A DNA stretch of 64,000 nucleotides from contig CAVWPA010000003.1 of NCBI GenBank assembly GCA_963756875.1, forward strand, positions 1,504,001 through 1,568,000, in the 5' to 3' direction. The position numbers were made by a program, and so were the translations under genes. This DNA comes from an uncultured Verrucomicrobiae bacterium (lineage in GTDB: Bacteria > Verrucomicrobiota > Verrucomicrobiia > Chthoniobacterales > UBA10450). This document shows, in pieces, positions 26,618-45,393 of the stretch. Every line of letters begins with the position of its first letter. The first letter of the stretch is position 1. A model generated the notes under the pieces. That model was not told the DNA's origin, searched no databases, and worked only from the letters and a program-made list of their open reading frames with translations.

Positions 26618-27307
26618 TCAAAAAACCGCCCCAAACAAAGCGCCGACTCCTGCCGTTAGCGCCATCGCCAGCGCGCCCCAAAAAGTGACGCGCACAGCGG
26701 CCCGCAACACGGATGAACCCCCAGCCCGGGCCGCTAAGGAACCCAGGAGCGCAAGAAAGAACAACGAACTGCCCGAAACGGTCCAAATGAGCGCGGCGGT
26801 AGGCACCAGGACGACGAGGAGAAGCGGCAGCGCTGCACCGACCGTGAAGGTGGCAGCGGAAGCCATTGCCGCCTGAACGGGGCGTGCGCTGAGGGTGTCG
26901 GAGATGCCTAGCTCGTCACGGGCGTGAGCGCCCAGCGCATCCTTAGCCATCAATTGGGTGGCCACTTCGTCCGCCAGCGCGGCGTCCAGTCCGCGCTCGA
27001 CGTAGATGGCGGCCAGTTCGGCGTGTTCGTACTGGCCGTCTTTGGCCAACTCCTCGCGTTCTCGACCGATGTCGGCTTGCTCGGTATCGGCTTGGGAACT
27101 GACGGAGACGTACTCACCTGCAGCCATCGACATCGCGCCCGCTACCAAGCCGGCAATGCCAGCGACCAGAATGCTGCTGCGGCTGGACTCGGCTGCGGCC
27201 ACGCCCACGATCAAACTGGCGGTCGAGACGATCCCGTCGTTGGCACCAAGCACGGCGGCACGCAGCCATCCGATGCGGTGGGTTCGGTGATGTTCGGCAT
27301 GTCTCAT
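26618..27307 (-). CDS. VIT1/CCC1 family Fe/Mn transporter (cassette)
   Basis: WLRAAVLGANDGIVS, AGAMSMAAGEYVSVSSQ.D. Confidence 0.92.
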   Translation of the reverse strand: MRHAEHHRTHRIGWLRAAVLGANDGIVSTASLIVGVAAAESSRSSILVAGIAGLVAGAMSMAAGEYVSVSSQADTEQADIGREREELAKDGQYEHAELAAIYVERGLDAALADEVATQLMAKDALGAHARDELGISDTLSARPVQAAMASAATFTVGAALPLLLVVLVPTAALIWTVSGSSLFFLALLGSLAARAGGSSVLRAAVRVTFWGALAMALTAGVGALFGAVF

Positions 27308-27363
27308 GGTAAATGGGCGAGCGCAGAAAGCCTAACGAGACACAAGATCAGCCGCCGCTAGCG

Positions 27364-27522
27364 TTGAACAACATTACGGCGGGAGTGCGTGAGCGCAGCG
27401 AATGGAGCTGCGGGTCAAGCGACATGGAAGGTAAAACGACGAGGGTAGGAGCGAGTGAGTGTGGGCAACGAACGAGTTTCAATCGCACCAGGGAAGCCGG
27501 GCACCTGGAGATATTCCAGGCG
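27364..27522. mobile_element. attC-inserted ~160-bp element, copy 1
   Basis: TTGAACAACATTACGGCGGGAGTGCG...TCGCACCAGGGAAGCCGGG...CCTGGAGATATTCCAGGCG inside attC 27331-27653. Confidence 0.75.
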
Positions 27523-27696
27523 GGAGCGCGCGTCGCTCGTGGTCTGTGGTCAGTAGTCATGTTGTCCTGTATTTATACACCGGCCAGCGTGCCTGCTTGC
27601 CTGCCGCCGTGGCGGGCGAAAGCTTTCGGAGTTGGCTGGAGCGATTGGTTAGGCCGAGGCCCACAGCTCCACGTCGCCAATTGACGGCAAGATCCT

Positions 27697-28185
27697 CTAG
27701 GGCCCCTTTACGTCCACATTGTGGTAGGCTGCTATGTTCCATTCACCTTTGTTGTTTACGAACACCTCCTGCAAGCGCGTGCGCATTTTACCATCGCCCC
27801 TGCTCGTCACGCCAGGCGGCACACCGTGAAGCTCGCTCAATTCCGTCGAGATATCGACGATTGCTACATCGGGCCGGAGGAAATGAATCTTGTCTACCGA
27901 CATAGTGAGCCTGCTGCCCTTGAAAAACGTCCTGAAAATTTCCGCGTGCCGATCTTCGAAGGCTCGATGGCCGTAAAATACAGTTCCACGGATGTTCGTG
28001 AAACTCCCGTCTTCGGCGAATCTTCGCGAAAAAGCCTTGGCGTCGCCGACATTCCACGCCGCAACTTGGTCGGCGACGATCTGACGAATTCGCGATTCGT
28101 CGCCGTGTGATTGTGCGGCGAGAGGTAACGAGGTGACGAGGAGGAAAAGGTAAGCTGAGACGATTGTAATTGCTTTTGTTTTCAT
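27697..28185 (-). CDS. SgcJ/EcaC (SnoaL/NTF2-like) protein (cassette)
   Basis: AAWN.GDA.AF...FAEDG.FTNI.G, W.I.AYHN; signal peptide. Confidence 0.85.
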   Translation of the reverse strand: MKTKAITIVSAYLFLLVTSLPLAAQSHGDESRIRQIVADQVAAWNVGDAKAFSRRFAEDGSFTNIRGTVFYGHRAFEDRHAEIFRTFFKGSRLTMSVDKIHFLRPDVAIVDISTELSELHGVPPGVTSRGDGKMRTRLQEVFVNNKGEWNIAAYHNVDVKGP

Positions 28186-28356
28186 GAAAGGAGATTGAGG
28201 TCTAACGAGAACAAGCTGAGTTACGGCTACCGGAGGCGGGCGTCAAATGCGATCTGAATGTTTTAGTCATCGAAAATGTAAATGCACAACGGGTAGCCAG
28301 CCTGCTCGCGAAAGCCTTCGGAGTTAGCCCGAGCGCCTGGTTAGACCTCAGCTATA

Positions 28357-28725
28357 TCATTTCCAACGTATAGCTTTGCCTTTTCCCTGAGCTTGGTTGG
28401 AAAGAATTGATCTGCGGTTAAGAATAGAGGCAACCGGCAAAGCGTCTACTATGACGGCCTGCGCCCCGAGCTTAGCCGCCGCTTCACGGAACTTGCGCCT
28501 AACATCTTCGTCAGAAACACCAATCGTCTTATCGACTGAAACAAAGCCGATAACATTGAAGGGACGCTGCGGCGTTTGATACAGGATCTGTACCTTACTG
28601 GGATCGGTCGGATGATACGTGATACCTGGCACAGCGTTTGTGCCAGATGTGGCACAAGCAACAAGGGTAAGCGCGATAACAATCGCGCTAAACGAAGCGA
28701 GGAACGTGCGTTTGATGTTGATCAT
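28357..28725 (-). CDS. Hypothetical lipoprotein (cassette)
   Basis: Lipobox LVAC; AAKLGAQAVI. Confidence 0.75.
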   Translation of the reverse strand: MINIKRTFLASFSAIVIALTLVACATSGTNAVPGITYHPTDPSKVQILYQTPQRPFNVIGFVSVDKTIGVSDEDVRRKFREAAAKLGAQAVIVDALPVASILNRRSILSNQAQGKGKAIRWK

Positions 28726-28865
28726 GGCGTGTGTGGTGTTGGGTTAGGCCTAACTAGACGGAGCTCAGCTGCCGCTGACGAAACCGAGCTTTGATAACAT
28801 TGAGAACTCTCTCATAAAATTCCAGTTTGGTCACGCGACGGTCAGCGATTAGCTGCAGCGATGGG

Positions 28866-29267
28866 TTAGCCCTTTGCTCGCACGCGTTCTTTCATGTCGG
28901 TGTACGCAGTATCGATTAGCTTCGTTAGAGCCGTGGCATCGAAGTCACGATCGGGTCGGAGCTTCACGTGACGCATAAACTTGCCTGTGCCTTCCAACAG
29001 ACCCTCCGGATCGGCTATTTCGGCGCCACGAAAGAATCCGACATTCACGTGCGCTTTGAAAACGTTGACGTACCCGAATGCCGCGTCAGCTATACACGCC
29101 GTTGGATGGCCATCATGCAACAGTTCTCGCACATCGTCTCCACACTTACGCATAACCTCAAACCAATGCCGCGCGATTACACCCAATTCCTCTGTATGCG
29201 CTTTCATCCAGGTCTCGATGGTTGGATCACGCTTAACCGAACCGGAGAACCGCAGGAGCTGATTCAT
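28866..29267 (-). CDS. DUF1801 family protein (cassette)
   Basis: HVNVGFFRGA..DPEGLLEGTGKFMRHVKL; stop codon lies in the attC R'' box. Confidence 0.88.
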   Translation of the reverse strand: MNQLLRFSGSVKRDPTIETWMKAHTEELGVIARHWFEVMRKCGDDVRELLHDGHPTACIADAAFGYVNVFKAHVNVGFFRGAEIADPEGLLEGTGKFMRHVKLRPDRDFDATALTKLIDTAYTDMKERVRAKG

Positions 29268-29346
29268 GACCGTTACACAAGAAACAGAGTGTGGGAGTAA
29301 TTCGGGGTCTTGGGCCTAACGGGAACAAGATGAGCGACGGCTTCCG

Positions 29347-29506
29347 TTGCTACAACAATACGGCGGGAGTGCGCGAGCGCAGCGAATGGAGCTGCGGGTC
29401 AAGCGACATGGAAGGTAAAACGACGAGGGTAGGAGCGAGTGAGTGTGGGCAACGAACGAGTTTCAATCGCACTAGGGAAGCCGGGGTCTTGGATAAAATC
29501 CAAGCG
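29347..29506. mobile_element. attC-inserted ~160-bp element, copy 2
   Basis: TTGCTACAACAATACGGCGGGAGTGCG...TCGCACTAGGGAAGCCGGGGTCTTGGATAAAATCCAAGCG inside attC 29315-29667. Confidence 0.75.
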
Positions 29507-29668
29507 AGGGCGCCCGTCGCTCGGAGTGAATGGAGTGGACTGTCAAGCCACGACATAGACGGGAAGCCCGGAGGGGATGGGAGCAGCGCGACCATATCAA
29601 AGTGTGGAAGTCATCTCAAAAAGTGGAGGGTACAACGGTCCGCCGTTCGCTCCATCGCATGGTTAGGC

Positions 29669-30052
29669 CTATTCGAGCGCACTGATCGTGAGATAGTATC
29701 CATCAGGGTCCCTGAGTGAGAATTCCCTTGTTTGAGTGTTCGGGTTCACGTGGGGCTCCTCCTCGAGCCGAGCGACGAGAGCGCGTGCCCTTGGCAGCGC
29801 CATGTCAAAATCATCGACACGGAAAAACAAGAGGAGGCCGTTGCCAGGTGTCGCCCGCTCCGGGCTCATCAACGACGGATGCTCGTGCGTGCCCCATTGG
29901 TGGAGGCAGAGCAGGACAGTTCCATCCGAATCGAGGATCTGACCAAAGTAGGCATGGCCCGGTTGTGTCTCGGGCTGGCCGAAGAGCGACTGGTACCATT
30001 TGAAGCTACTTGGTACATCGCTTACGCCGATGATCGTCCACGTGCGTTTCAT
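29669..30052 (-). CDS. VOC/glyoxalase family protein (cassette)
   Basis: VSDV..S..WY..LFG, REFSLRDPDGY. Confidence 0.88.
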   Translation of the reverse strand: MKRTWTIIGVSDVPSSFKWYQSLFGQPETQPGHAYFGQILDSDGTVLLCLHQWGTHEHPSLMSPERATPGNGLLLFFRVDDFDMALPRARALVARLEEEPHVNPNTQTREFSLRDPDGYYLTISALE

Positions 30053-30185
30053 AGCATTTACGCTGCTGGCCTAACGAGACAAAGCTGAGCTGCGGCTGCC
30101 GGAGCCGAGCGTCAAATGCAGTGTGGAGGTTTTGATCATGGAAAATGGAATTGCACAGCGGGTAGCCGTTCGCTCCAGCGCTTGG

Positions 30186-30686
30186 TTAGGCGTTTCGCGT
30201 CTCATTGGCTGAGAAACGTTGCATGGGCACAAAGCGAATACCGTGAACGCACTGCTCTGAACCAGTGACACGAAAACCTAAACGCTCGTAGGCAGAAACG
30301 GCATTCGGTGAAGAGCTGACAGTGAACTCGCAATCCGTATCGCCAGCTAGCGTGCTCGCAGCCGCGAGCAGCCCACGGCCGATGCCGCTGCACTGCCGGG
30401 AAGACTGAACAAAGAGCATGGCGACGTGGCAAGGCTCGCGCAAATGAAGCATGCCGATCAACTTGCCCGAGTGCTCGGCGACTAAGGTGATGTGACCAGA
30501 CTCGTGACGCTGCGAAAGGGCCTCAGCAGAAGCATAGCGGTGAAACTCCGTGACGCCCTCGGTTTGGTAGTGCGGTGCGACAAACTGGTCGAACGCCTCG
30601 CGCGCAAGAGAAGACACGGCTGCGATTTCCGACGGGTGAATCTGGCGATAAATTACCGAACTCACGATGGGCGAAATGGCTTTCAT
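30186..30686 (-). CDS. GNAT N-acetyltransferase (cassette)
   Basis: LFV...Q.SGIGR.LL, TVSSSPNAVSAYERLGF. Confidence 0.88.
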   Translation of the reverse strand: MKAISPIVSSVIYRQIHPSEIAAVSSLAREAFDQFVAPHYQTEGVTEFHRYASAEALSQRHESGHITLVAEHSGKLIGMLHLREPCHVAMLFVQSSRQCSGIGRGLLAAASTLAGDTDCEFTVSSSPNAVSAYERLGFRVTGSEQCVHGIRFVPMQRFSANETRNA

Positions 30687-30814
30687 TTACACGAGGTGCG
30701 CAGCAAAGACCTAACGACCCAAGCTCAGCGACCCGGCCCGCGGGACGCGTGGATTGCAACCAGAGCGCGATGGCCGGGTTCGCTGTAGCGCATGGTTAGG
30801 CCTCGTTCCTTGAT

Positions 30815-31252
30815 TCACGGGTGATCTCCGCAATGGTTTTGAACAGTAATTCTTTCTTGATTGGTTTGCTTCAGCTTGCGATTCCGACGAGCGCCGACGA
30901 TGGCACAAGCAACCCCAACAAAGAAGCAGAGGCGAAACAGATTGATGACAAAAAAAGAAACTGAACGGAATGTGCCCGGCGGCATAGACTCCGCCGCCGG
31001 TGCGAGCGGGAGAGGTGCAACGATACCGAGCAGAATCAGGAGAACGCCAAGTGGCACCAGAATGGATTTCTTCGGTGCCGACGATATCCACATCCAAAAA
31101 CCCGAAAGGACTATGAAAGGCAGGGCGACATATCGAACAATGGGCGCGTAATTCGGAAGTTGTTCAAACGGACTGTAAATGTAACCGAGTATCGGAATGC
31201 CGAAAATAATGTGAATCCAGCGAAGGATCGAACGTTTGGTAGCATTACTCAT
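30815..31252 (-). CDS. Hypothetical membrane protein (cassette)
   Basis: About 4 TM segments; ORF fills the cassette. Confidence 0.7.
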   Translation of the reverse strand: MSNATKRSILRWIHIIFGIPILGYIYSPFEQLPNYAPIVRYVALPFIVLSGFWMWISSAPKKSILVPLGVLLILLGIVAPLPLAPAAESMPPGTFRSVSFFVINLFRLCFFVGVACAIVGARRNRKLKQTNQERITVQNHCGDHP

Positions 31253-31441
31253 AATTGGTTGATATATCTATTTATCGGCAAAAGCGCATCAATTACTCTA
31301 GCCTAACGAGACAAAGATAAGCTACGGCCACCAGCGCTGAGGCCAATCTGTGGAGGAAGTAAGTAAATCATCGAAAAGCATGTCCAAGGCGTACCGCAGT
31401 GGCCGTTAGCTTCATCGTGTGGTTAGATGCGGACGTGAAAA

Positions 31442-31657
31442 TCACAGATCGTTTGGCGTCAGACCTGTTCTCTTCGCAATGCGCGCCAGCATGCGGGGAC
31501 CAATCTCCTCCGAATCGTGAAATGCGAACACGGTGTCCGGCCAGCCCGGCCGTGACAGAATCCGGTGAGAGCCTCCGCTCTCGCGCTTGATGGTCCAGCC
31601 GATCCGCAGCAGCGCGGCCAGAACTCGGCGCGCTTTTGCAGAACCCCATTGGCTCAT
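31442..31657 (-). CDS. hicA: HicA-family toxin
   Basis: L.RIGW..KR.SGGSH..L, HDSEEIGP..L..I. Confidence 0.88.
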   Translation of the reverse strand: MSQWGSAKARRVLAALLRIGWTIKRESGGSHRILSRPGWPDTVFAFHDSEEIGPRMLARIAKRTGLTPNDL

Positions 31658-31863
31658 GCCGTGGCGACGGAGAAAACTTGGTCAATCTCGGGGGAATTCT
31701 CGCCCTGCTCAATACGCTCGGCTAAAACACGGAGCCCGAGCGCCTGAACCCGCGCAACCGCTTCCTGGCGCGAACTCCCGTACGCCAGTGCGCCGGGAAT
31801 CTGTGGAACCTCGGCGATCCAACGGCCATCTGTCTCTTGCTCGGTCTCGACTGTGAACTTCAC
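31654..31863 (-). CDS. hicB: HicB-family antitoxin (short)
   Basis: EQE.DGRWIAEVP.IPGALAYG..R.EA; GTG start; ATGA overlap with hicA. Confidence 0.88.
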   Translation of the reverse strand: MKFTVETEQETDGRWIAEVPQIPGALAYGSSRQEAVARVQALGLRVLAERIEQGENSPEIDQVFSVATA

Positions 31864-31944
31864 AATACAATTATGCCGCAAATAGCGAGAGAGCACAAGC
31901 CAGGCCTCACCATCTAACGAGAACAAGATGAGCGACGGCTTCCG

Positions 31945-32110
31945 TTTGTTACAACAATACGGCGGGAGTGCGTGATAATCGCACTCAGCGGTTCGCAGGC
32001 GCGAACTTTGCGGCGGGAGGCCGCGAGCGTTTGGCGAGTTGGTCTAGGGAAGCCGACAACTCGGTTCGGTGAAACCGAGGGAGGCCGGGGCCCCGGATGA
32101 AATCCAGGCG
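31945..32110. mobile_element. attC-inserted ~165-bp element, copy 3 (divergent interior)
   Basis: Same ends (TTGTTACAACAATACGGCGGGAGTGCG / AGGGAGGCCGGGG..CCGGATGAAATCCAGGCG) with a different multi-hairpin interior; inside attC 31913-32199. Confidence 0.7.
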
Positions 32111-33174
32111 AGAGCGCGCGTGGCGGCGGGATGGGAGGTTCGAGTCATGAAAAACTTGGCCGTACGCCGGCCAGCGGTTGGCTGCATCGCTTGGTTAGGC
32201 TTTTCGTGATCCATGTTTTCAACCGCCGCGATTGCCGCTTGGACGGCAACTGGATCAAGTGTGAGTGAGATGTGGTCGATCCCCGGGAGCACCGTCACAG
32301 GAACATCTTTGCCAGCTGTCTTGAAAACGGCTGCAAACCGATCGGCGTACGACACCTCATCGTTTTGACCGACGAGCACCCGAAGGGGTTGCCTAACCGC
32401 TCGAATGTTTGCCTGGTAATCGCGCTCAGGCCTGAAGTTCTGCGCGAGGGCGAAGGAGTATTGCGGGGTGAGCAAGCCCTTATCCCTCTCGGCGACCGCG
32501 AATCTGACCACTGGCAGGTCGTCAAACGCGTGCACCCGAAACCCGTTGAGCACGGCGGTCGCTATGATGCGCGGAACGCCCACGGTAGCCCAGCCGCCGT
32601 TACCCGGACGCAACGTCGCTGCGTCCTGACTGATCCAAGGAGAAAGAAGAAGATAGTTGGAGAATAGTTCCTGACGTGGACTGCCCGCGAAGCGAAGCAC
32701 AAATCCGCCGCCGGAAGAGAACCCGGCGAGCGTGGAAGGCTGAGCCAATTTAGTCGAATGGACGAAATCTTCCATGTCGTCCTCCAACTGGCCGATATAA
32801 GCGATGTGGCCTTTTGTGCCTGATTCGCCGTGTCCGCGGACGTCCAAAGCGTAGGCTGCATAGCCAGCCGCAGCAAAACCCTTGGCCATCAGGTGCATGC
32901 TGCTGCTAGTGGCAGAGGAGCCGTGCACGAGCACCACACTGCCTTTGACAGCGTCACCGGCATTCGGGTAGGCCCGAAAGGCGAGCTTGGCGCCATCGCG
33001 AGCCGTAAAGTAACTTAGCTCCGGTAAATCGGAGAAATCCACGTTCTTGAAAGGGTCACCAATGCTCGACATTGGCGGCGGCGCAGCGCCTGGCCCGCCA
33101 AGAGCGATTGCGAGCCCAAGGGCAGCCACAAGAACTGCGACAACAATAAGATTGGTGATGAGAAAACGCTTCAT
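32044..33174 (-). CDS. Alpha/beta hydrolase (cassette); reading frame runs through its attC
   Basis: VLVHGSS, DVRGHGES, GFSSGG; C-terminal tail translated from attC and insert sequence. Confidence 0.88.
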   Translation of the reverse strand: MKRFLITNLIVVAVLVAALGLAIALGGPGAAPPPMSSIGDPFKNVDFSDLPELSYFTARDGAKLAFRAYPNAGDAVKGSVVLVHGSSATSSSMHLMAKGFAAAGYAAYALDVRGHGESGTKGHIAYIGQLEDDMEDFVHSTKLAQPSTLAGFSSGGGFVLRFAGSPRQELFSNYLLLSPWISQDAATLRPGNGGWATVGVPRIIATAVLNGFRVHAFDDLPVVRFAVAERDKGLLTPQYSFALAQNFRPERDYQANIRAVRQPLRVLVGQNDEVSYADRFAAVFKTAGKDVPVTVLPGIDHISLTLDPVAVQAAIAAVENMDHEKPNQAMQPTAGRRTAKFFMTRTSHPAATRALAWISSGAPASLGFTEPSCRLP

Positions 33175-33309
33175 GCGATGGCCTAACGAGACCAAGATCA
33201 GCTACGCCTTCCGACGGCGAGACTGATTTGGAATGAGGATAATCTAATCATAAGAAAATGTCGACGCGGTACGGGAAGGCGTTACCCGAATCGCCTGGTT
33301 AGATCCTCC

Positions 33310-33663
33310 TCAGTGCCGACCATGCAACGTGAACGTGATCGGAACCATCAGTGAATGTACTGCGTGGGGTTTTGCCTTCCAAAGTCTCAGAGCGGCTATG
33401 GCGTGTCCATCAAGGAGGGGCGAGCCTGTGCTCTTCACCACATGGATCTCACGCAAGTGACCAGAAGCATAATCAAACTTGAGCTCGAACAACGCGCTGC
33501 CTTCAACGTGGTGTCTGCGCATTTCGTACGGATAATCAGGGAGCGCAGCCCTAGTGAGTAGCTGCCGCTCTGCCTCATCCAAAGAAATCGTCGCTTTTTG
33601 GGAACCGGCAAAACTGGCGGCCCCAAGCGTGGCGAACATCAGAAGTAGAAGGCAAGCACGCAC
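33310..33663 (-). CDS. TonB C-terminal domain protein (cassette)
   Basis: PDYPYEMRRHHVEG, KSTGSPLLD..A..ALR.W, VPITF. Confidence 0.8.
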   Translation of the reverse strand: MRACLLLLMFATLGAASFAGSQKATISLDEAERQLLTRAALPDYPYEMRRHHVEGSALFELKFDYASGHLREIHVVKSTGSPLLDGHAIAALRLWKAKPHAVHSLMVPITFTLHGRH

Positions 33664-33798
33664 AAGATCTAACGAGAACAAGATGAGCCACCACTGGCGA
33701 GAGCGCGCGTGGCAGCGGCATGTGGGGTTGGAATCACGAAAAACTTGGGCGTACGCCGGCCAGTGGTTGGCTCCATCGCCTGGTTAGATGCCGGCGTC

Positions 33799-34038
33799 CT
33801 ACGAAGCAAGTAGTGTCCGAACCGAGATGTCTTCATCCACGTCGTCCCAGTGAATGCCAACCCCGCGGCCAATCAACCGCCACTTCGCTCTTTGGTCGGG
33901 TGTGGCTCGCAGAAGCCGAGGGAACCACTCCAACGGAGCTGAGACGCGGCGGCCATCTGCGAGAGTGACGACCAACTCGTCGTCGGTGCACGACACATCG
34001 ACGGCATCGGCGACCGGCTTACTGGCTAAAGTGCTCAT
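33799..34038 (-). CDS. DUF2442 family protein (putative antitoxin)
   Basis: V.LADGR..SAPLEWFPRL..AT, GIHW..VDEDISV. Confidence 0.88.
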   Translation of the reverse strand: MSTLASKPVADAVDVSCTDDELVVTLADGRRVSAPLEWFPRLLRATPDQRAKWRLIGRGVGIHWDDVDEDISVRTLLAS

Positions 34039-34255
34039 CCCAAGCAATGATAAACTTCTGAGCGTGCTCTGCAATAAGAGAGTGGATCTCGCGCAACTCG
34101 GAGCCGCGAAAGCCACGCGACTCCACCAGCTCGATCAGCTCCAGCCAAAACTTTGCGTATCGCTCGGCTTGCTCCACGTGGACGTGCCGGGGCTCCTGAC
34201 CTTCTCGACTGAAGAAAAAGAAGCGATAGCCGCCAATACGCAGAATCTCGGGCAT
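34019..34255 (-). CDS. DUF4160 family protein (putative toxin)
   Basis: MP.ILRIGGYRFFFFS.EG.EP.HVHV...AKFWL. Confidence 0.88.
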   Translation of the reverse strand: MPEILRIGGYRFFFFSREGQEPRHVHVEQAERYAKFWLELIELVESRGFRGSELREIHSLIAEHAQKFIIAWDEHFSQ

Positions 34256-34555
34256 CGCTGCCGAATCTACGGTGCCTTGCCGCCGCCGCAACACAACGCG
34301 CCTGGCTCATAGCATCTAACGAGATAGTGCTGGGCCACCGCTGGCGGCGGCGGGCGTGGCGGACATCGAGAACTGCTTCATAAAATCAGGTGTGGACTTC
34401 ACAACGGCCCGCCTGAGGCGGGTTGGCTGCAGCGATTGGTTAGGCCTTTCGATCATCATCATGGGTTTTAGGATAGCGCGGAATAATCGTGACAACGCAC
34501 CGGTGTGCGCGGCAGAATCAATGCCCTGTTACGGTCTTGATGAAAACTCTACTCT

Positions 34556-35560
34556 ATGGAAAATCTTAATATCAATCTCCGACTCTGTGATTTTGCCGCG
34601 ATAGTGGCGACGATATTGATTTCGAGCAGTGCCCGCTCGGTCGCGCAAGCGAACGTGCAGAATGTCCAGGTGGTCAGTACTCCAGCCCCTTCAGGTTCAC
34701 CGCAGACGAATCTGCCGAATTTTTCAGCTCTTTCGACTCCTTCAGATACGCCGCCTCCCTCAACTTCCGGTTCCGGCCTATCTTCACTTATCGGGATTAC
34801 GCCTCAAAACTCCGGCTCGACGGCAACGTCGGCAAGTCCGGCAGCGCCGGCTTCACCCGCTGCTTCAGCTACTTCGTTTGTGCCCATCGACCCGGTCGAC
34901 TCGTTCCAAACGAAGTTTGCCCCCAACCAGAACGTCGGCGATGGTGTCGTCAACACTAACCCGGTCAAGCCCGCCCCTTCGCCTGCTATTTCGGCGAGCC
35001 CGGCGACGACTAATATCCCTATTCAAGGATCCCAGGTGAACGAGGCCGCCCACGCCACGGGAACAGGGACGGGAACGGTAATGCCCAGTAACAACGTGCT
35101 AATTCAGGGATCCCAGGCGAACGATAACGCCCACGCCGCGAGCTCAGGATCAGTGCCGATAACGCCCAGCAAAAATGTCTCTATTCAGGGAGCTCAGGTA
35201 AACAATCCGCTTACAGGCAACGCAGACAACAACGCGGGCGATGCAGATAACCGCCGCGTCAATCGACATCCTGGACACAAAATTAAGAACAAAGGCCAGG
35301 GACAACTGAGCAACGCAGGAGCCGGCGGCGACGACAGTGGACCCAAACTACACGACGGTCAGCACAAGAAGCGGGAACGAATCCAGACCCAGGGACAAGG
35401 AGGCAATGGGCAGCGCCATCATCACCAACAGCAGGTGCAATCCACTCAACCGCAGCCGGGCCTCAGGGCTTGGGGCACCACAGTCCATGCGGGCAACGTA
35501 GACAGCGCGGGCGATGGTGGTAAAAAAGGGAAACCAAAACCTACCCCAACCCCCCACTAG
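34556..35560 (+). CDS. Low-complexity P/S/T/N-rich exported protein, inverted in its cassette
   Basis: Signal-like N-terminus, three IQG(S/A)Q repeats, C-terminal KPKPTPTPH. Confidence 0.7.
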   Translation: MENLNINLRLCDFAAIVATILISSSARSVAQANVQNVQVVSTPAPSGSPQTNLPNFSALSTPSDTPPPSTSGSGLSSLIGITPQNSGSTATSASPAAPASPAASATSFVPIDPVDSFQTKFAPNQNVGDGVVNTNPVKPAPSPAISASPATTNIPIQGSQVNEAAHATGTGTGTVMPSNNVLIQGSQANDNAHAASSGSVPITPSKNVSIQGAQVNNPLTGNADNNAGDADNRRVNRHPGHKIKNKGQGQLSNAGAGGDDSGPKLHDGQHKKRERIQTQGQGGNGQRHHHQQQVQSTQPQPGLRAWGTTVHAGNVDSAGDGGKKGKPKPTPTPH

Positions 35561-35664
35561 AAGGTTTCGTGTGGATCACGAAACTTGTCACCGGAGGCAT
35601 CCTCGCTCTGCGTCGACGGCGCCGGCTTCCCGCCTAACGAGAACAAGATGAGCGACGGCTTCCG

Positions 35665-35824
35665 TTGTTACAACAATACGGAGGGAGTGCGTGAGCGCAG
35701 CGAATGGAGCTGCGGGTCAAGCGACATGGAAGGTAAAACGACGAGGGTAGGAGCGAGTGAGTGTGGGCAACGAACGAGTTTCAATCGCACTAGGGAAGCC
35801 GGGGTCTTGGATAAAATCCAAGCG
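35665..35824. mobile_element. attC-inserted ~160-bp element, copy 4
   Basis: Nearly identical to 29347-29506; inside attC 35633-35981. Confidence 0.75.
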
Positions 35825-35994
35825 AGGGCGCGCGTCGATCGGAGTGAATGGAGTGGACTGTCAAGCCACGACATAGACGGGAAGCCCGGAGGGGAGGGAG
35901 AGCGCGACGAACCAAAATGTGGAAGTCATCTCAAAAGTGGAGCGCACAGCGGTCCGCCGTTCGCTCCATCGCATGGTTAGGTGCTTGGTGATAA

Positions 35995-36570
35995 TCATAG
36001 ACTTCGCTCCTTCAGGAGTCTGATTAACGTTAATGCAATATCAACGTATTGCGTAGCCGACTCCTCACTCATTTCAAAATCCTGTTTATGGGTAGCTGCG
36101 TTACGGATTCGGCTAAGAGAATTAAACAACTCTTCCTCGTGTCGCCCAAAAACCTCCTTGTCCCGGAGCATCTTGGCGATGGAGGTGTGGGCTAAGAGCT
36201 CTTCTTTCGTGTCAAGCTCCGGATAGTGTTTGATAAGGGCTTCAGCGGCCGGCCAGCTCAAGCATCGAATACGCGCCAAGAACGGCAGACCTTTGATCAA
36301 AGCAGGCGATCTCTCCAAGCTCGGTTCGCGGAATTCGATCAACCGACGTTGGTCTTTTGAGAGTGATGACGGGGCGGGAAGAGCAGCGACGTCATGTTTC
36401 AAATCCTCAATCTGCTTTGCGAAATCGATTATTGTATCCCGATGCTGCAACCTTGTTAGCCGAGGGAATACAGCGGCGATCCCTCGGCGGAATAGGAGTC
36501 CAATTACAATAACTGTGGCAGGCCAGCTTGTCGCCTTTATCAGTTCGGCTGTAAACGTGAGAGCGTCCAT
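35995..36570 (-). CDS. Hypothetical protein with N-terminal TM (cassette)
   Basis: SWP..V.V..LLFR N-terminus; C-terminal RIRNAATH resembles a HEPN-like RxxxxH. Confidence 0.7.
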   Translation of the reverse strand: MDALTFTAELIKATSWPATVIVIGLLFRRGIAAVFPRLTRLQHRDTIIDFAKQIEDLKHDVAALPAPSSLSKDQRRLIEFREPSLERSPALIKGLPFLARIRCLSWPAAEALIKHYPELDTKEELLAHTSIAKMLRDKEVFGRHEEELFNSLSRIRNAATHKQDFEMSEESATQYVDIALTLIRLLKERSL

Positions 36571-39659: not shown

Positions 39660-39826
39660 GAGACCTAACGAGAACAAGCTGAGCTACGGCTACCGGAACC
39701 GAGCGTCAAATGCGATCTGAATGTTTTAATCACGACAAAATGTAAATGCACAACGGGTAGCCAGCCTGCTCGCGAAAGCCTTCGGAGTTAGCTCGAGCGC
39801 CTGGTTAGGTCTCCGGCACAATAAAA

Positions 39827-44337: not shown

Positions 44338-44376
44338 ACCTAACGAGAATTAGACGAATTTTTTCGCCTAATTCTG
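44338..44376 (-). promoter_or_regulatory. Putative attI recombination site
   Basis: Single GTTAGGT core opening the first cassette, no partner attC arm; preceded by an inverted repeat overlapping the intI stop. Confidence 0.7.
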
Positions 44377-45393
44377 GATTTGGCGGTTATCCGATCCCAT
44401 CGTTCGCGGGTCATCAAGAGGGCTCTGGATCGCGAGCCCGGGTTTGTTCAGGACATGGGTATAAATCATCGTGGTCGAGACGTCCTTGTGGCCGAGCAAC
44501 TCCTGGACGTTACGAATATCGGAGCCGTATTCAAGCAAATGCGTGGCAAAAGAGTGTCGAAAGGTGTGGCAACTTGCTGCCTTGGGTATCACGCGTCCGT
44601 TGGACGGCCAATTTAACAGCATTTTGGAGGTTCTTTTCAAGACGAATGGTGTCGGCGGAGCTCGCCGGAGAGCGGGTCGATGGAAAGTTTGTTGGCCGGG
44701 AAAACATACTGCCATGGCCACGCGCGGCTGGCGTTGCGATATTTGCGTTCCAAGGCAAAGGGGAGATAGACGCGGCCGCCGCCGCCGGCGAGATCCCGCT
44801 CGTGCAACGCCTGTACATGGGCCAGATGTAACTCGGAGCCGGCGTCGCAGACGTTGCGGCAAGAGCGTTCTGCGTTGACGCAATCCTTTGCCGTCGCGCA
44901 CCGTGATTTGACCGTATCCGAAATCGACGTCTTTGACGCGCAGGCGCACGCATTCCATCAAACGCAGGCCGGCGCCATAAAGCAGTTCGGCCATCAGCTG
45001 ATGCTCGCCGTTCATTTTTTTAAGGACCGAGCGCGTTTCGGCAGGGGTAAAGACGACGGGTAGCTTGGGCGGGCGCGTGACGCGCTGGATGTCATCGATG
45101 AAACTCAGCTTGCGATCGAGCACGTGGTGGTAAAGAAAAAGCAGCGCGCTGAACGCCTGATTCTGTGTGGAGGCGGCGACGCGTTTATTGACGGCGAGAT
45201 GGCTAAGAAACTGCGATATCTCTGCCTCGCCCATTTCGTTCGGGTGACGTTTGCCCTGGAACAGAATGTAACGCCGGATCCAATCGACGTACGCTTCTTC
45301 GGTGCGAATGCTGTAATGTTTAACCCGTAGCTGCCATCGGACGCGGTCCAGCAATTTTGGGGAGGACGCAACGGTGGCGGTCGTGGGCTTCAC
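44368..45393 (-). CDS. intI: Integron integrase (internal segment out of frame)
   Basis: [61 protein letters not shown]; IntI patch [11 protein letters not shown]...WQYVFP present in another frame. Confidence 0.95.

Follow-up and report, generated by a model that had tools for sequence, protein, structure and literature searches.

Small structured modules as candidate mobile inserts in the long attC sites of a Chthoniobacterales cassette array

The cassette array of an uncultured Verrucomicrobiae bacterium from soil, analysed within a 64,000-nt stretch of one contig (the window), contains about 26 attC sites, four of which carry an insert of 159–166 nt at one bottom-strand position. The explanation favoured here, with a probability of roughly one half, is that each insert has been stacked from small insertion modules, all of them non-coding, which belong to repeat families spread throughout the Chthoniobacterales lineage. 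The modules can be separated from one another, are specific in position and strand and fold on the written strand; near-identical attCs differ in having or lacking them, and they can interrupt a coding gene. Since presence/absence alleles exist, a non-autonomous mobile mini-element, one of the origins suggested in the original prediction, is the best reading of the inserts.

Long attC sites and the make-up of their inserts

The array is composed of 22–26 attC repeats with single ORFs between them, one repeat per cassette, and its sites qualify as attCs by their R' and R'' boxes, paired arms, extrahelical base and a nearby IntI-like gene. The four long sites, which together with their inserts lie where they had originally been placed (Table 1), have more than doubled in length and belong, as also noted before, to cassettes with unrelated genes. 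In the attCs treated in PMC5371416, length varies in the variable terminal region, while strand choice and recombination rate are set by unpaired features. Vibrio cholerae repeats (VCR) likewise contain branched variable terminal structures inside attC; in comparison with VCR and the other attCs described there (57–141 bp, PMC5371416), however, the present sites reach 291–357 nt, and the extra DNA consists of separable dispersed modules.

The original prediction of a single element of ~160 bp has to be abandoned in favour of a composite one. Three of the inserts are 94–98% identical over 155–160 nt (E 1e-51 to 1e-59), while the fourth (31945–32110) has only its ends in common with the others; the 5' end (30 nt) is 83–100% identical in all four. 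The conserved ends form a unit of ~84 nt, designated K, and nested in its loop is either a further interior module of 83–84 nt (A, three copies) or, in the fourth copy, a second three-hairpin unit. Alignment against four uninterrupted attCs locates the insert between the end of the left arm (...CG) and RGRGCG, with K positioned 31–32 nt inside R'. The proposed CG core is not general: CG stands at both junctions of all four inserts here, but not in the commonest attC type of the relatives. Any target duplication by K is a 2-nt CG at most.

That the insert is non-coding, structured, and specific in its position and strand within attC was borne out, and the 160 nt contain no ORF. Terminal inverted repeats are absent as well: when the last 25 nt were reverse-complemented and compared with the first 25 nt, the scores were 3–4, against a mean of 4.1–4.7 for shuffled ends. 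The search of the 64-kb window with nhmmer found neither K nor A elsewhere, in agreement with the earlier claim that the insert occurs nowhere else in it; the interior modules do, however, recur in the genome outside attC. Rfam gave no match at gathering scores over the whole window, and at E up to 5 (27200–36100) only a single chance snoRNA-like match. No match to plasmids or phages was obtained, and no promoter-like site was seen upstream of K on the strand of K.

Two further modules, X (72–76 nt, in the 29315 and 35633 sites) and S, are located at other unpaired attC positions than K. A stretch resembling the long form of S was found in the repeat region of another locus (L004). The occurrence of modules only at unpaired attC positions could alternatively be caused by survivor bias. 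The 31913 site is chimeric; its left arm, which matches the 35633 type, is unable to pair with its own right arm.

Table 1. Features of the long attC sites and their surroundings (window coordinates)
Feature	Position	Strand	Remarks
attC of DUF4440/SnoaL cassette	27331..27657	+ (bottom strand on +)	~327 nt; carries K+A and long S
K unit with nested A	27364..27522	+	A at 27400-27482
S module, long form	27590..27630	+	41 nt; right arm, extrahelical-base position
S module	28299..28322	+	24 nt; right arm of otherwise ordinary attC; second copy 39763-39786
attC of glyoxalase cassette	29315..29671	+	~357 nt; carries K+A and X
K unit with nested A	29347..29506	+	A at 29384-29466
X module	29529..29604	+	76 nt; 5' half A-like; inside variable terminal structure
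Chimeric attC of alpha/beta-hydrolase cassette	31913..32203	+	left arm of 35633 type, right part of 33668/39046 type
K ends around second complete three-hairpin unit	31945..32110	+	inner unit 31990-32079, the intergenic 'B' form
attC of cassette without Pfam hit	35633..35985	+	~353 nt; carries K+A and X
K unit with nested A	35665..35824	+	A at 35702-35784
X module	35847..35918	+	72 nt; exactly these nt skipped by metagenome contigs
Integron-integrase-like tyrosine recombinase	44368..45393	-	strand same as cassettes

Distribution of the modules and the three-hairpin family

The separability of the modules is evident from related genomes and metagenomes, in which the empty alleles named beforehand as a check were indeed found. 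For one attC type an allelic series could be assembled: a relative (G021) has it empty, another (G020) contains K, X and S, and the present genome K, A and X. Soil contigs lack A, X, or K together with A, and metagenome contigs join position 29380 to 29465 via nine other letters, that is, they have K without A. In the relatives K without A is present both as single copies and as tandem arrays, with two or three 84-nt units inside attCs. K is present at 4 of the 26 attC-like sites of this array; in a relative (G008), two pieces of array have it at 6 of 26. K resides in attCs with differing arms, and the distance between its first junction and the R' box is 43 nt in 25 of the 34 distinct attC-borne copies; 36 copies occupy the bottom strand, compared with at most two possible cases on the top strand. 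Excision products and circles were not seen, nor were any dispersed copies that are identical and recent.

Module A occurs alone at five non-integron sites of this genome, and filled/empty pairs were found for it in three different hairpin loops. The 160-nt query, mostly via its A part, matched in 17 of the 36 further genomes from this family and in none of the 24 from other families of the order. No consensus fold was obtained for A. Its target duplication is inconsistent (flanking direct repeats of at least 6 nt in only 5 of 32 copies, 3 of these 5 being paralogues), and its replication-strand bias is weak (about 10 of 12 non-integron copies) and confounded by gene orientation.

K is an attC-specific lineage of a three-hairpin family (3H), which is common across Chthoniobacterales/Udaeobacter-like MAGs and is built of hairpin H1, a TTT-ACGGCGGGAG junction, hairpin H2, a CYAGGGAAGCCGG junction and hairpin H3. 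The junctions are constant across genera and the helices covary, as a structured element had been expected to. In the closing helix of H2, 95.4% of cells are paired, compensatory change is observed at all four pairs, and the covariation score is 0.52 against 0.117 for shuffled alignments, a value as high being reached in none of 500 shuffles. In 32 sequences the first pair of this helix is a G-U, and the folding strand is thereby defined. Stems of at least 7 bp were found for H1 in 44% and for H3 in 52% of 113 elements, compared with 8% and 12% of shuffles. The variable parts of 3H are its ends, H1 and H3, and the conserved parts its interior junctions. Most transposons have the reverse pattern, with conserved ends and a variable interior; the arrangement in 3H is more in keeping with an RNA or ssDNA structure under selection.

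Outside integrons, a 3H unit interrupts the reading frame of hsdM, the two halves of which align with residues 362–427 and 457–503 of solved type I M proteins, and the copies at this same site differ by compensatory H1 changes. Some 3H copies, such as those upstream of nadE here and in a second genome (L064), look orthologous between genomes and could reflect function rather than mobility. Two of four pattern matches on viral contigs proved to be real units. The second junction of 3H is similar to one REP type of this genome. Whether transposon or functional RNA, 3H is uncatalogued.

Competing explanations

In the main rival to the mobile-module reading, 3H, and perhaps A, would be a structured RNA or ssDNA motif with a function, for instance as a small ribozyme, protein-binding RNA or regulatory element, and would be maintained by selection. 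The attC copies would then be its by-products or modulators of cassette expression or antisense transcription. Junctions fixed across genera with covarying helices are the usual signature of functional RNAs, and the definition of one strand by G-U pairs, the compensatory H1 changes at the hsdM site, the copies upstream of nadE in two genomes and the real units on viral contigs point in the same direction. However, in both attC and hsdM the strand that folds runs antisense to the host genes, one orthologous pair (L085, L126) is antisense between two co-directional genes, and the searches for an Rfam family and for a promoter ahead of K gave nothing in its favour. Neither the fixed attC position nor the tandem arrays would be explained by it, and we consider this alternative rather unlikely.

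The original prediction had also offered a heritable giant terminal structure. In that case K would be an inherited enlargement of the variable terminal structure in some attC lineages, without mobility of its own; it would spread with cassettes and through exchange among attCs, be it recombination, slippage or gene conversion. The idea of a heritable giant structure is correct insofar as K-bearing attC types are inherited and common to several genera, and the most common of them in the relatives has K in every copy seen, albeit in a sample collected with the K pattern and hence biased. Slippage could produce the tandem units, and the chimeric 31913 site shows recombination between K-bearing sites. 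Yet the attCs hosting K have differing arms, one and the same attC type has a K-less allele, and the 3H family is also found outside integrons and within a coding gene. The empty alleles and the hsdM copies are left unexplained, and the alternative appears improbable.

An IS110-like origin, inferred previously from the 2-bp core, would make K a miniature IS110/IS1111-attC derivative (ends plus guide RNA) served in trans by a DEDD transposase. The CG at both junctions of the four copies suits this origin, and the cassette arrays of relatives contain or adjoin IS110-family transposase genes. The IS1111-attC elements covered in PMC11187229 (ISPst6, ISKpn4) resemble K in their site- and orientation-specific targeting of attC, of which they use one end. 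Elements of this kind measure kilobases and code for both a DEDD transposase and a guide RNA, whereas K is 84 nt and sits at the boundary of the stem and the terminal structure. The family member present in the array of a relative lies beside R'', at the other end of attC, and not 31 nt inside R'. Moreover, the commonest attC type has no CG repeat; PF01548 is found in 13 of 41 family genomes, but is absent from the present one (87.6% complete), and carriers of K or A without a DEDD match include G009, G012, G028 and G033. In a blastn comparison of K, A and X with eight IS110-bearing loci, only K copies in attCs matched, with no similarity to the IS itself. This origin is largely refuted and very improbable.

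Next to no chance is given to K being a remnant of a group IIC-attC intron. Such introns, as described in PMC3001079, also insert into the bottom strand of attC, against the direction in which the cassettes are transcribed. They comprise a ribozyme and an RT over ~2 kb, neither of which was found here. The genome has no RT (RVT_1), no group II intron model matched, the unit measures 84 nt and the same family is present in many non-attC contexts; for practical purposes the remnant is refuted. A DDE-type MITE was likewise rejected, since both terminal inverted repeats and a target-site duplication of fixed length are lacking.

Relation to repeat elements and consequences for the integron

Among protein-less repeats, REP/BIME elements with RAYT (Y1 HUH) proteins and REPINs are, like the present modules, short, non-coding, hairpin-forming, lineage-specific mosaics. 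Nevertheless, 3H has three hairpins, two fixed junctions and variable ends, whereas a REP consists of a GTAG tetranucleotide and a single palindrome; REP arrays cluster around Y1 genes, where K and A are absent, and no REPs are known from a fixed attC position. The BOX elements of Streptococcus pneumoniae are modular (boxA-boxB-boxC), structured and protein-less, too, and like the modules here have no known mobilising mechanism. They differ in sequence, host and architecture, and neither hairpin-loop nesting nor an attC association is known for them. IS200/IS605-derived PATEs share with the modules the lack of terminal inverted repeats and target-site duplication, the reliance on hairpins, strand specificity and single-stranded DNA. 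In PATEs the subterminal hairpins stay conserved and the target is short and fixed, while the terminal hairpins H1 and H3 of 3H are variable. The searches revealed no IS200/IS605 element whose ends resemble those of K, no TnpB in the genome and no IS605-related Rfam match.

The favoured course of events begins with a K lineage of 3H that would have adapted to the attC bottom strand, where the paired stem gives way to the variable terminal structure. Module A would have entered the apical loop of K later; the fourth copy has another 3H unit there instead. X and S occupy further unpaired positions. The modules presumably move in trans, as or into hairpin-folded single-stranded DNA, and settle in loops, bulges and spacers. 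The only candidate mobilising class in this genome, which yielded no IS110 DEDD, TnpB or RT matches, is that of RAYT-like Y1 HUH proteins. Two Y1 genes have repeat-rich flanks bordered by GTAG-hairpin REP arrays, with no K or A there; HUH/ssDNA mobilisation of the inserts is possible. A bolder proposal, which we regard as doubtful, is that 3H, together with A, X and S as its riders, represents a novel kind of protein-less mobile nucleic acid, in which the conserved three-way core and not the ends is active. Such a core might be a small catalytic or enzyme-recruiting structure inserting itself into unpaired loops of folded ssDNA, for example those of attC bottom strands or of different hairpins. 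A single lineage would have specialised on integron sites and would tune cassette mobility.

With respect to the integron, the modules are predicted to weaken the folding of attC. The predicted probability of arm pairing is 0.45–0.77 in five ordinary attCs and 0.07–0.21 in the four long ones, and in silico removal of the insert raises it in three of the latter. By enlarging the terminal structure and adding competing pairings, the inserts would make the recombinogenic fold less likely, so that the cassettes concerned may tend to stay in place.

The long attCs would have been built by stepwise insertion of separable modules at unpaired features, namely the boundary of the terminal structure, the position of the extrahelical base and, in a relative, the central spacer. 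The three-hairpin family itself offers a tractable element with a conserved core and variable helices, for which there is no known enzyme or RNA family. If folding is lowered as predicted, the modules would represent a natural, reversible lock on individual cassettes and, if true, would add a new level of control to the integrons of a lineage that is among the most abundant in soil.

Composite inserts in the cassette array

The cassette array of the integron extends from ~24.6 to 44.4 kb of the window and its genes lie on the minus strand, so that the plus strand corresponds to the attC bottom strand. The left end of attC occurs in 22 copies in the array, and a looser pattern recovers 26 attC-like sites. 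An IntI-like tyrosine recombinase is encoded upstream of the cassettes and is co-directional with them, whereas the integrase of classical integrons is divergent from the cassettes. The four long attC sites, with their inserts, lie exactly where the original prediction had placed them; as it also claimed, the proteins of the cassettes concerned are unrelated and no terminal inverted repeats were found in the insert. Three of the inserts share 155–160 nt at 94–98% identity, and the fourth is alike at its ends only. In an alignment with four ordinary attCs, the insert follows the end of the left arm (...CG) and precedes RGRGCG. One cassette-sized interval carries a 334-aa Pro/Ser/Gly/Gln-rich ORF with no Pfam match, oriented oppositely to all other cassette genes.

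Positions of the inserts, modules and genes discussed in the text (window coordinates unless a contig is named)
Feature	Position	Strand	Remarks
Insert in attC site 27331	27364-27522		
Insert in attC site 29315	29347-29506		
Insert in attC site 31913	31945-32110		interior unit at 31990-32079
Insert in attC site 35633	35665-35824		
S module, 24 nt	28299-28322; 39763-39786		GCGAAAGC-type mini-hairpin inside; also L050, L179 (fetched loci)
S module, 41 nt	27590-27630		GCGAAAGC-type mini-hairpin inside
334-aa ORF	34556-35560	+	
IntI-like tyrosine recombinase	44368-45393	-	Phage_int_SAM_4 + Phage_integrase
RAYT-like Y1 locus	G000:C3:10.6-13.8 kb		L035; own genome
RAYT-like Y1 locus	G000:C2:135.4-138.7 kb		L036; own genome

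The insert had been regarded as a single element of ~160 bp; instead, it is a composite of a unit, K, and a nested interior module. A search of the 160-nt insert against 60 relatives revealed full-length copies in two genomes and "hollow" copies, in which query positions 6–34 and 119–160 are adjacent, in five. Read directly, the hollow copies are the 84-nt unit K, which in attCs of the relative G008 occupies the same place, either singly or in tandem arrays of two or three units. The module nested in the loop of K, designated A (query positions 38–120), is independent, 83–84 nt long, and starts with GAATGGAGCG and ends with GAGTTTCAA. The claim that the insert occurs nowhere else holds within the window; A, however, occurs at five non-integron sites of the same genome. 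Among 36 other family genomes, 17 gave a match to the 160-nt query, versus 0 of 24 from the remaining families of the order; nhmmer yielded 49 matches to A in the sequences searched, including 32 distinct full-length copies. Pairs of filled and empty units place A in three different hairpin loops, namely that of K and those of the second (H2) and third (H3) hairpins of intergenic units. In contigs from three soil metagenomes, representing related soil organisms (four DNA runs were compared), K has 9 different letters where A would be. The 31945 copy encloses, as its interior, another complete unit with three hairpins, of the intergenic type.

No consensus structure was obtained for A with RNAalifold (31 copies, both strands), nor were consistent target duplications found at its copies. 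The replication-strand bias of A amounts to about 10 of 12 only and is confounded with gene orientation; the orientation of the integron relative to the replichore is opposite in G008. Four very weak A-like nhmmer matches (E 4–9), ~140 nt apart, at G000:C3:1738491-1738985 may constitute a diverged tandem array. Short purine-rich repeats of the GAAAAGCTGAAA / GTTGAGAA type frequently surround both A and some three-hairpin units (L012, L016, L025, L030; G000:C3:1363.7 kb; L185).

The three-hairpin family and its locations

K is one lineage within a larger three-hairpin (3H) family, the plan of which reads H1 - (A/T)TT - ACGGCGGGAG - H2 - CYAGGGAAGCCGG - H3. Searching species-representative genomes for both conserved junctions in order (ACGGCGGGAG, 14–44 nt, CYAGGGAAGCC) gave at least 124 stretches, 80 of which were taken with their flanks. 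Among the matches listed, ~60 of these 80 came from Chthoniobacterales/Verrucomicrobia MAGs, and 16 from other phyla are devoid of hairpins and look like chance matches. The taxa found among related sequences are Chthoniobacterales, Candidatus Udaeobacter and Verrucomicrobiota MAGs.

The covariation called for by the original prediction was detected in the four-pair closing helix of H2. Across 103 distinct cores (five long-gap rows having been left out of the alignment beforehand), 95.4% of the cells are paired and compensatory changes occur at all four pairs; the covariation score of 0.52, reached by 0 of 500 shuffles, compares with 0.117 for shuffles, and slid controls collapse. The first pair of this helix is G-U in 32 sequences, which identifies the written strand as the one that folds. 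H1 forms a stem of 7 bp or more in 44% of 113 elements versus 8% of shuffles (39 distinct arm sequences), and H3 does so in 52% versus 12% (55 distinct arm sequences). The outer CGGC/GCCG pairing suggested by the original prediction is putative, its sequence being invariant. The Rfam search, also proposed earlier, gave nothing relevant either at gathering scores for the whole window or at E up to 5 for 27200–36100, leaving the insert without a catalogued RNA-family match. Annotated plasmids and phages contained no match to the insert; in viral contigs the A pattern had no matches and the 3H pattern four, two of them real units in putative viral contigs. A search of the own genome for kb-scale pairing of both junction motifs, the signal of an autonomous form, returned only chance matches in coding DNA, and a scan for sigma-70-type promoters revealed nothing linked to K.

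In attCs, the units are confined almost entirely to the bottom strand (36 versus at most two possible top-strand cases). Of the 34 distinct copies that have an R' box upstream, 25 place their first junction exactly 43 nt from it. Intergenic copies often directly follow a hairpin or a tRNA gene. Other units lie in the 3' portion of hsdM and run antisense to it: at the fetched locus L113 an 86-nt unit separates ...KRDK, where the hsdM frame breaks off, from ANLDIFWLKDE, where it continues, the two halves corresponding to residues 362–427 of StySJI M (E 1.2e-9) and 457–503 of EcoKI M (E 1.7e-4). The H1 arms of copies at this site differ across genomes yet remain paired, and at one hsdM position the H1 5' arm may belong to the coding sequence of the host. 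Interruptions of hsdM 3' ends recur at two positions in several MAGs (L113 232-671; L112; L060, L073, L103, L118).

In two genomes a gene beginning MK(V/I)GFAQLN, which we take by resemblance to be NAD synthetase-like, is preceded by a unit in the same orientation that has an H1 of GTTGGCAC...GTGCCAAC (G000:C3:1680454, outside the window; L064). Besides ~300-nt tandem units, a GGGCAAA(G) microsatellite and ATCGTAAGC...GCTTACGAT-type palindromes, the repeat-rich intergenic locus L004 (G000:C3:4.5-6.3 kb) contains a 3H unit whose H3 loop harbours A.

Evidence for gain and loss of modules, and predicted attC folding

Two further small modules, X and S, occupy other attC positions. One attC type can be arranged as a series, being module-free in the relative G021, carrying K, X and S at two sites of G020, and K with A, plus X, at two sites of the window. 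Empty attC alleles, which had been proposed as a check, thus exist: besides the module-free site in G021, in one soil contig 9 other letters stand between 35659 and 35829, giving an attC without K. Soil contigs also skip the 72 nt of X. K is present in 4 of 26 attC-like sites here; in two pieces of the G008 array the figure is 6 of 26. The attCs bearing K have quite different arms. The 31913 site is a recombinant: it corresponds to the 35633 site in its left arm and over the first 30 nt of K, its right part is of the 33668/39046 type, and its arms consequently no longer pair.

X, located here in the terminal structure, is similar to the 5' half of A; in the relative G016 it lies between R' and L' of an attC whose top strand also bears a copy of A. 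S is situated in the right arm, at the position of an extrahelical base, in three attCs here and in relatives. Within L004, a larger repeat (C3:5.0-6.0 kb) also includes an S-related stretch. All module positions are unpaired features of the folded attC, which could reflect targeting or the survival of tolerated insertions alone.

The attCs described in PMC5371416 measure 57–141 bp and vary in length in the terminal structure. When folded with DNA parameters, the first 25 and last 30 nt pair with a mean probability of 0.45–0.77 in five ordinary attCs versus 0.07–0.21 in the four long ones, and in silico deletion of the insert raises this probability in three of the four. In the minimum-energy folds of the 29315 and 35633 sites the left arm (CGGCTTCC) pairs with GGAAGCCG of K, a predicted competing structure that would be non-recombinogenic.

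Candidate enzymes and the nature of the modules

No match to the IS110 DEDD, TnpB-type or RT families was obtained in the own genome, which is 87.6% complete. Y1 HUH gave six weak matches there, of which two are typical RAYT-like genes (~160 aa) flanked on both sides by GTAG-hairpin REP arrays; neither K nor A lies beside them. IS110-family genes are present in 13 of 41 genomes of the family, some within cassette arrays, and one such element of G021 (L181 5843-7700, ~1.7 kb) splits a K-less attC just before the R'' box on the bottom strand, a layout resembling IS1111-attC in Verrucomicrobia. Eight IS110 loci share no sequence with K, A or X; on this ground, and given the lack of DEDD in the own genome, the IS110-like origin considered earlier was rejected.

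Group IIC-attC introns are placed in the attC bottom strand by PMC3001079, and IS1111 members at one end of attC by PMC11187229. Elements known to target attC are of kb size and code for enzymes; K lacks their defining features. Closest to K in its working are structured repeats of the REP/BIME or BOX type, from which it differs in a three-way conserved core, variable ends, nesting in loops and the fixation of one lineage at a single attC position. Literature searches on attC-targeting elements, attC and MITEs, Udaeobacter integrons and Verrucomicrobia repeats revealed no description of an element of this kind (Tetu & Holmes 2008 lay outside the scope of this search).

We rate the insert as real and uncatalogued. 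That K and its relatives are instead a functional RNA or single-stranded DNA motif seems rather unlikely. To the reading of the units as mobile modules we assign a probability of about 0.5. Because of their strand specificity, their hairpin-loop sites and the lack of terminal inverted repeats and target duplications, such modules would presumably move as, or into, single-stranded DNA.
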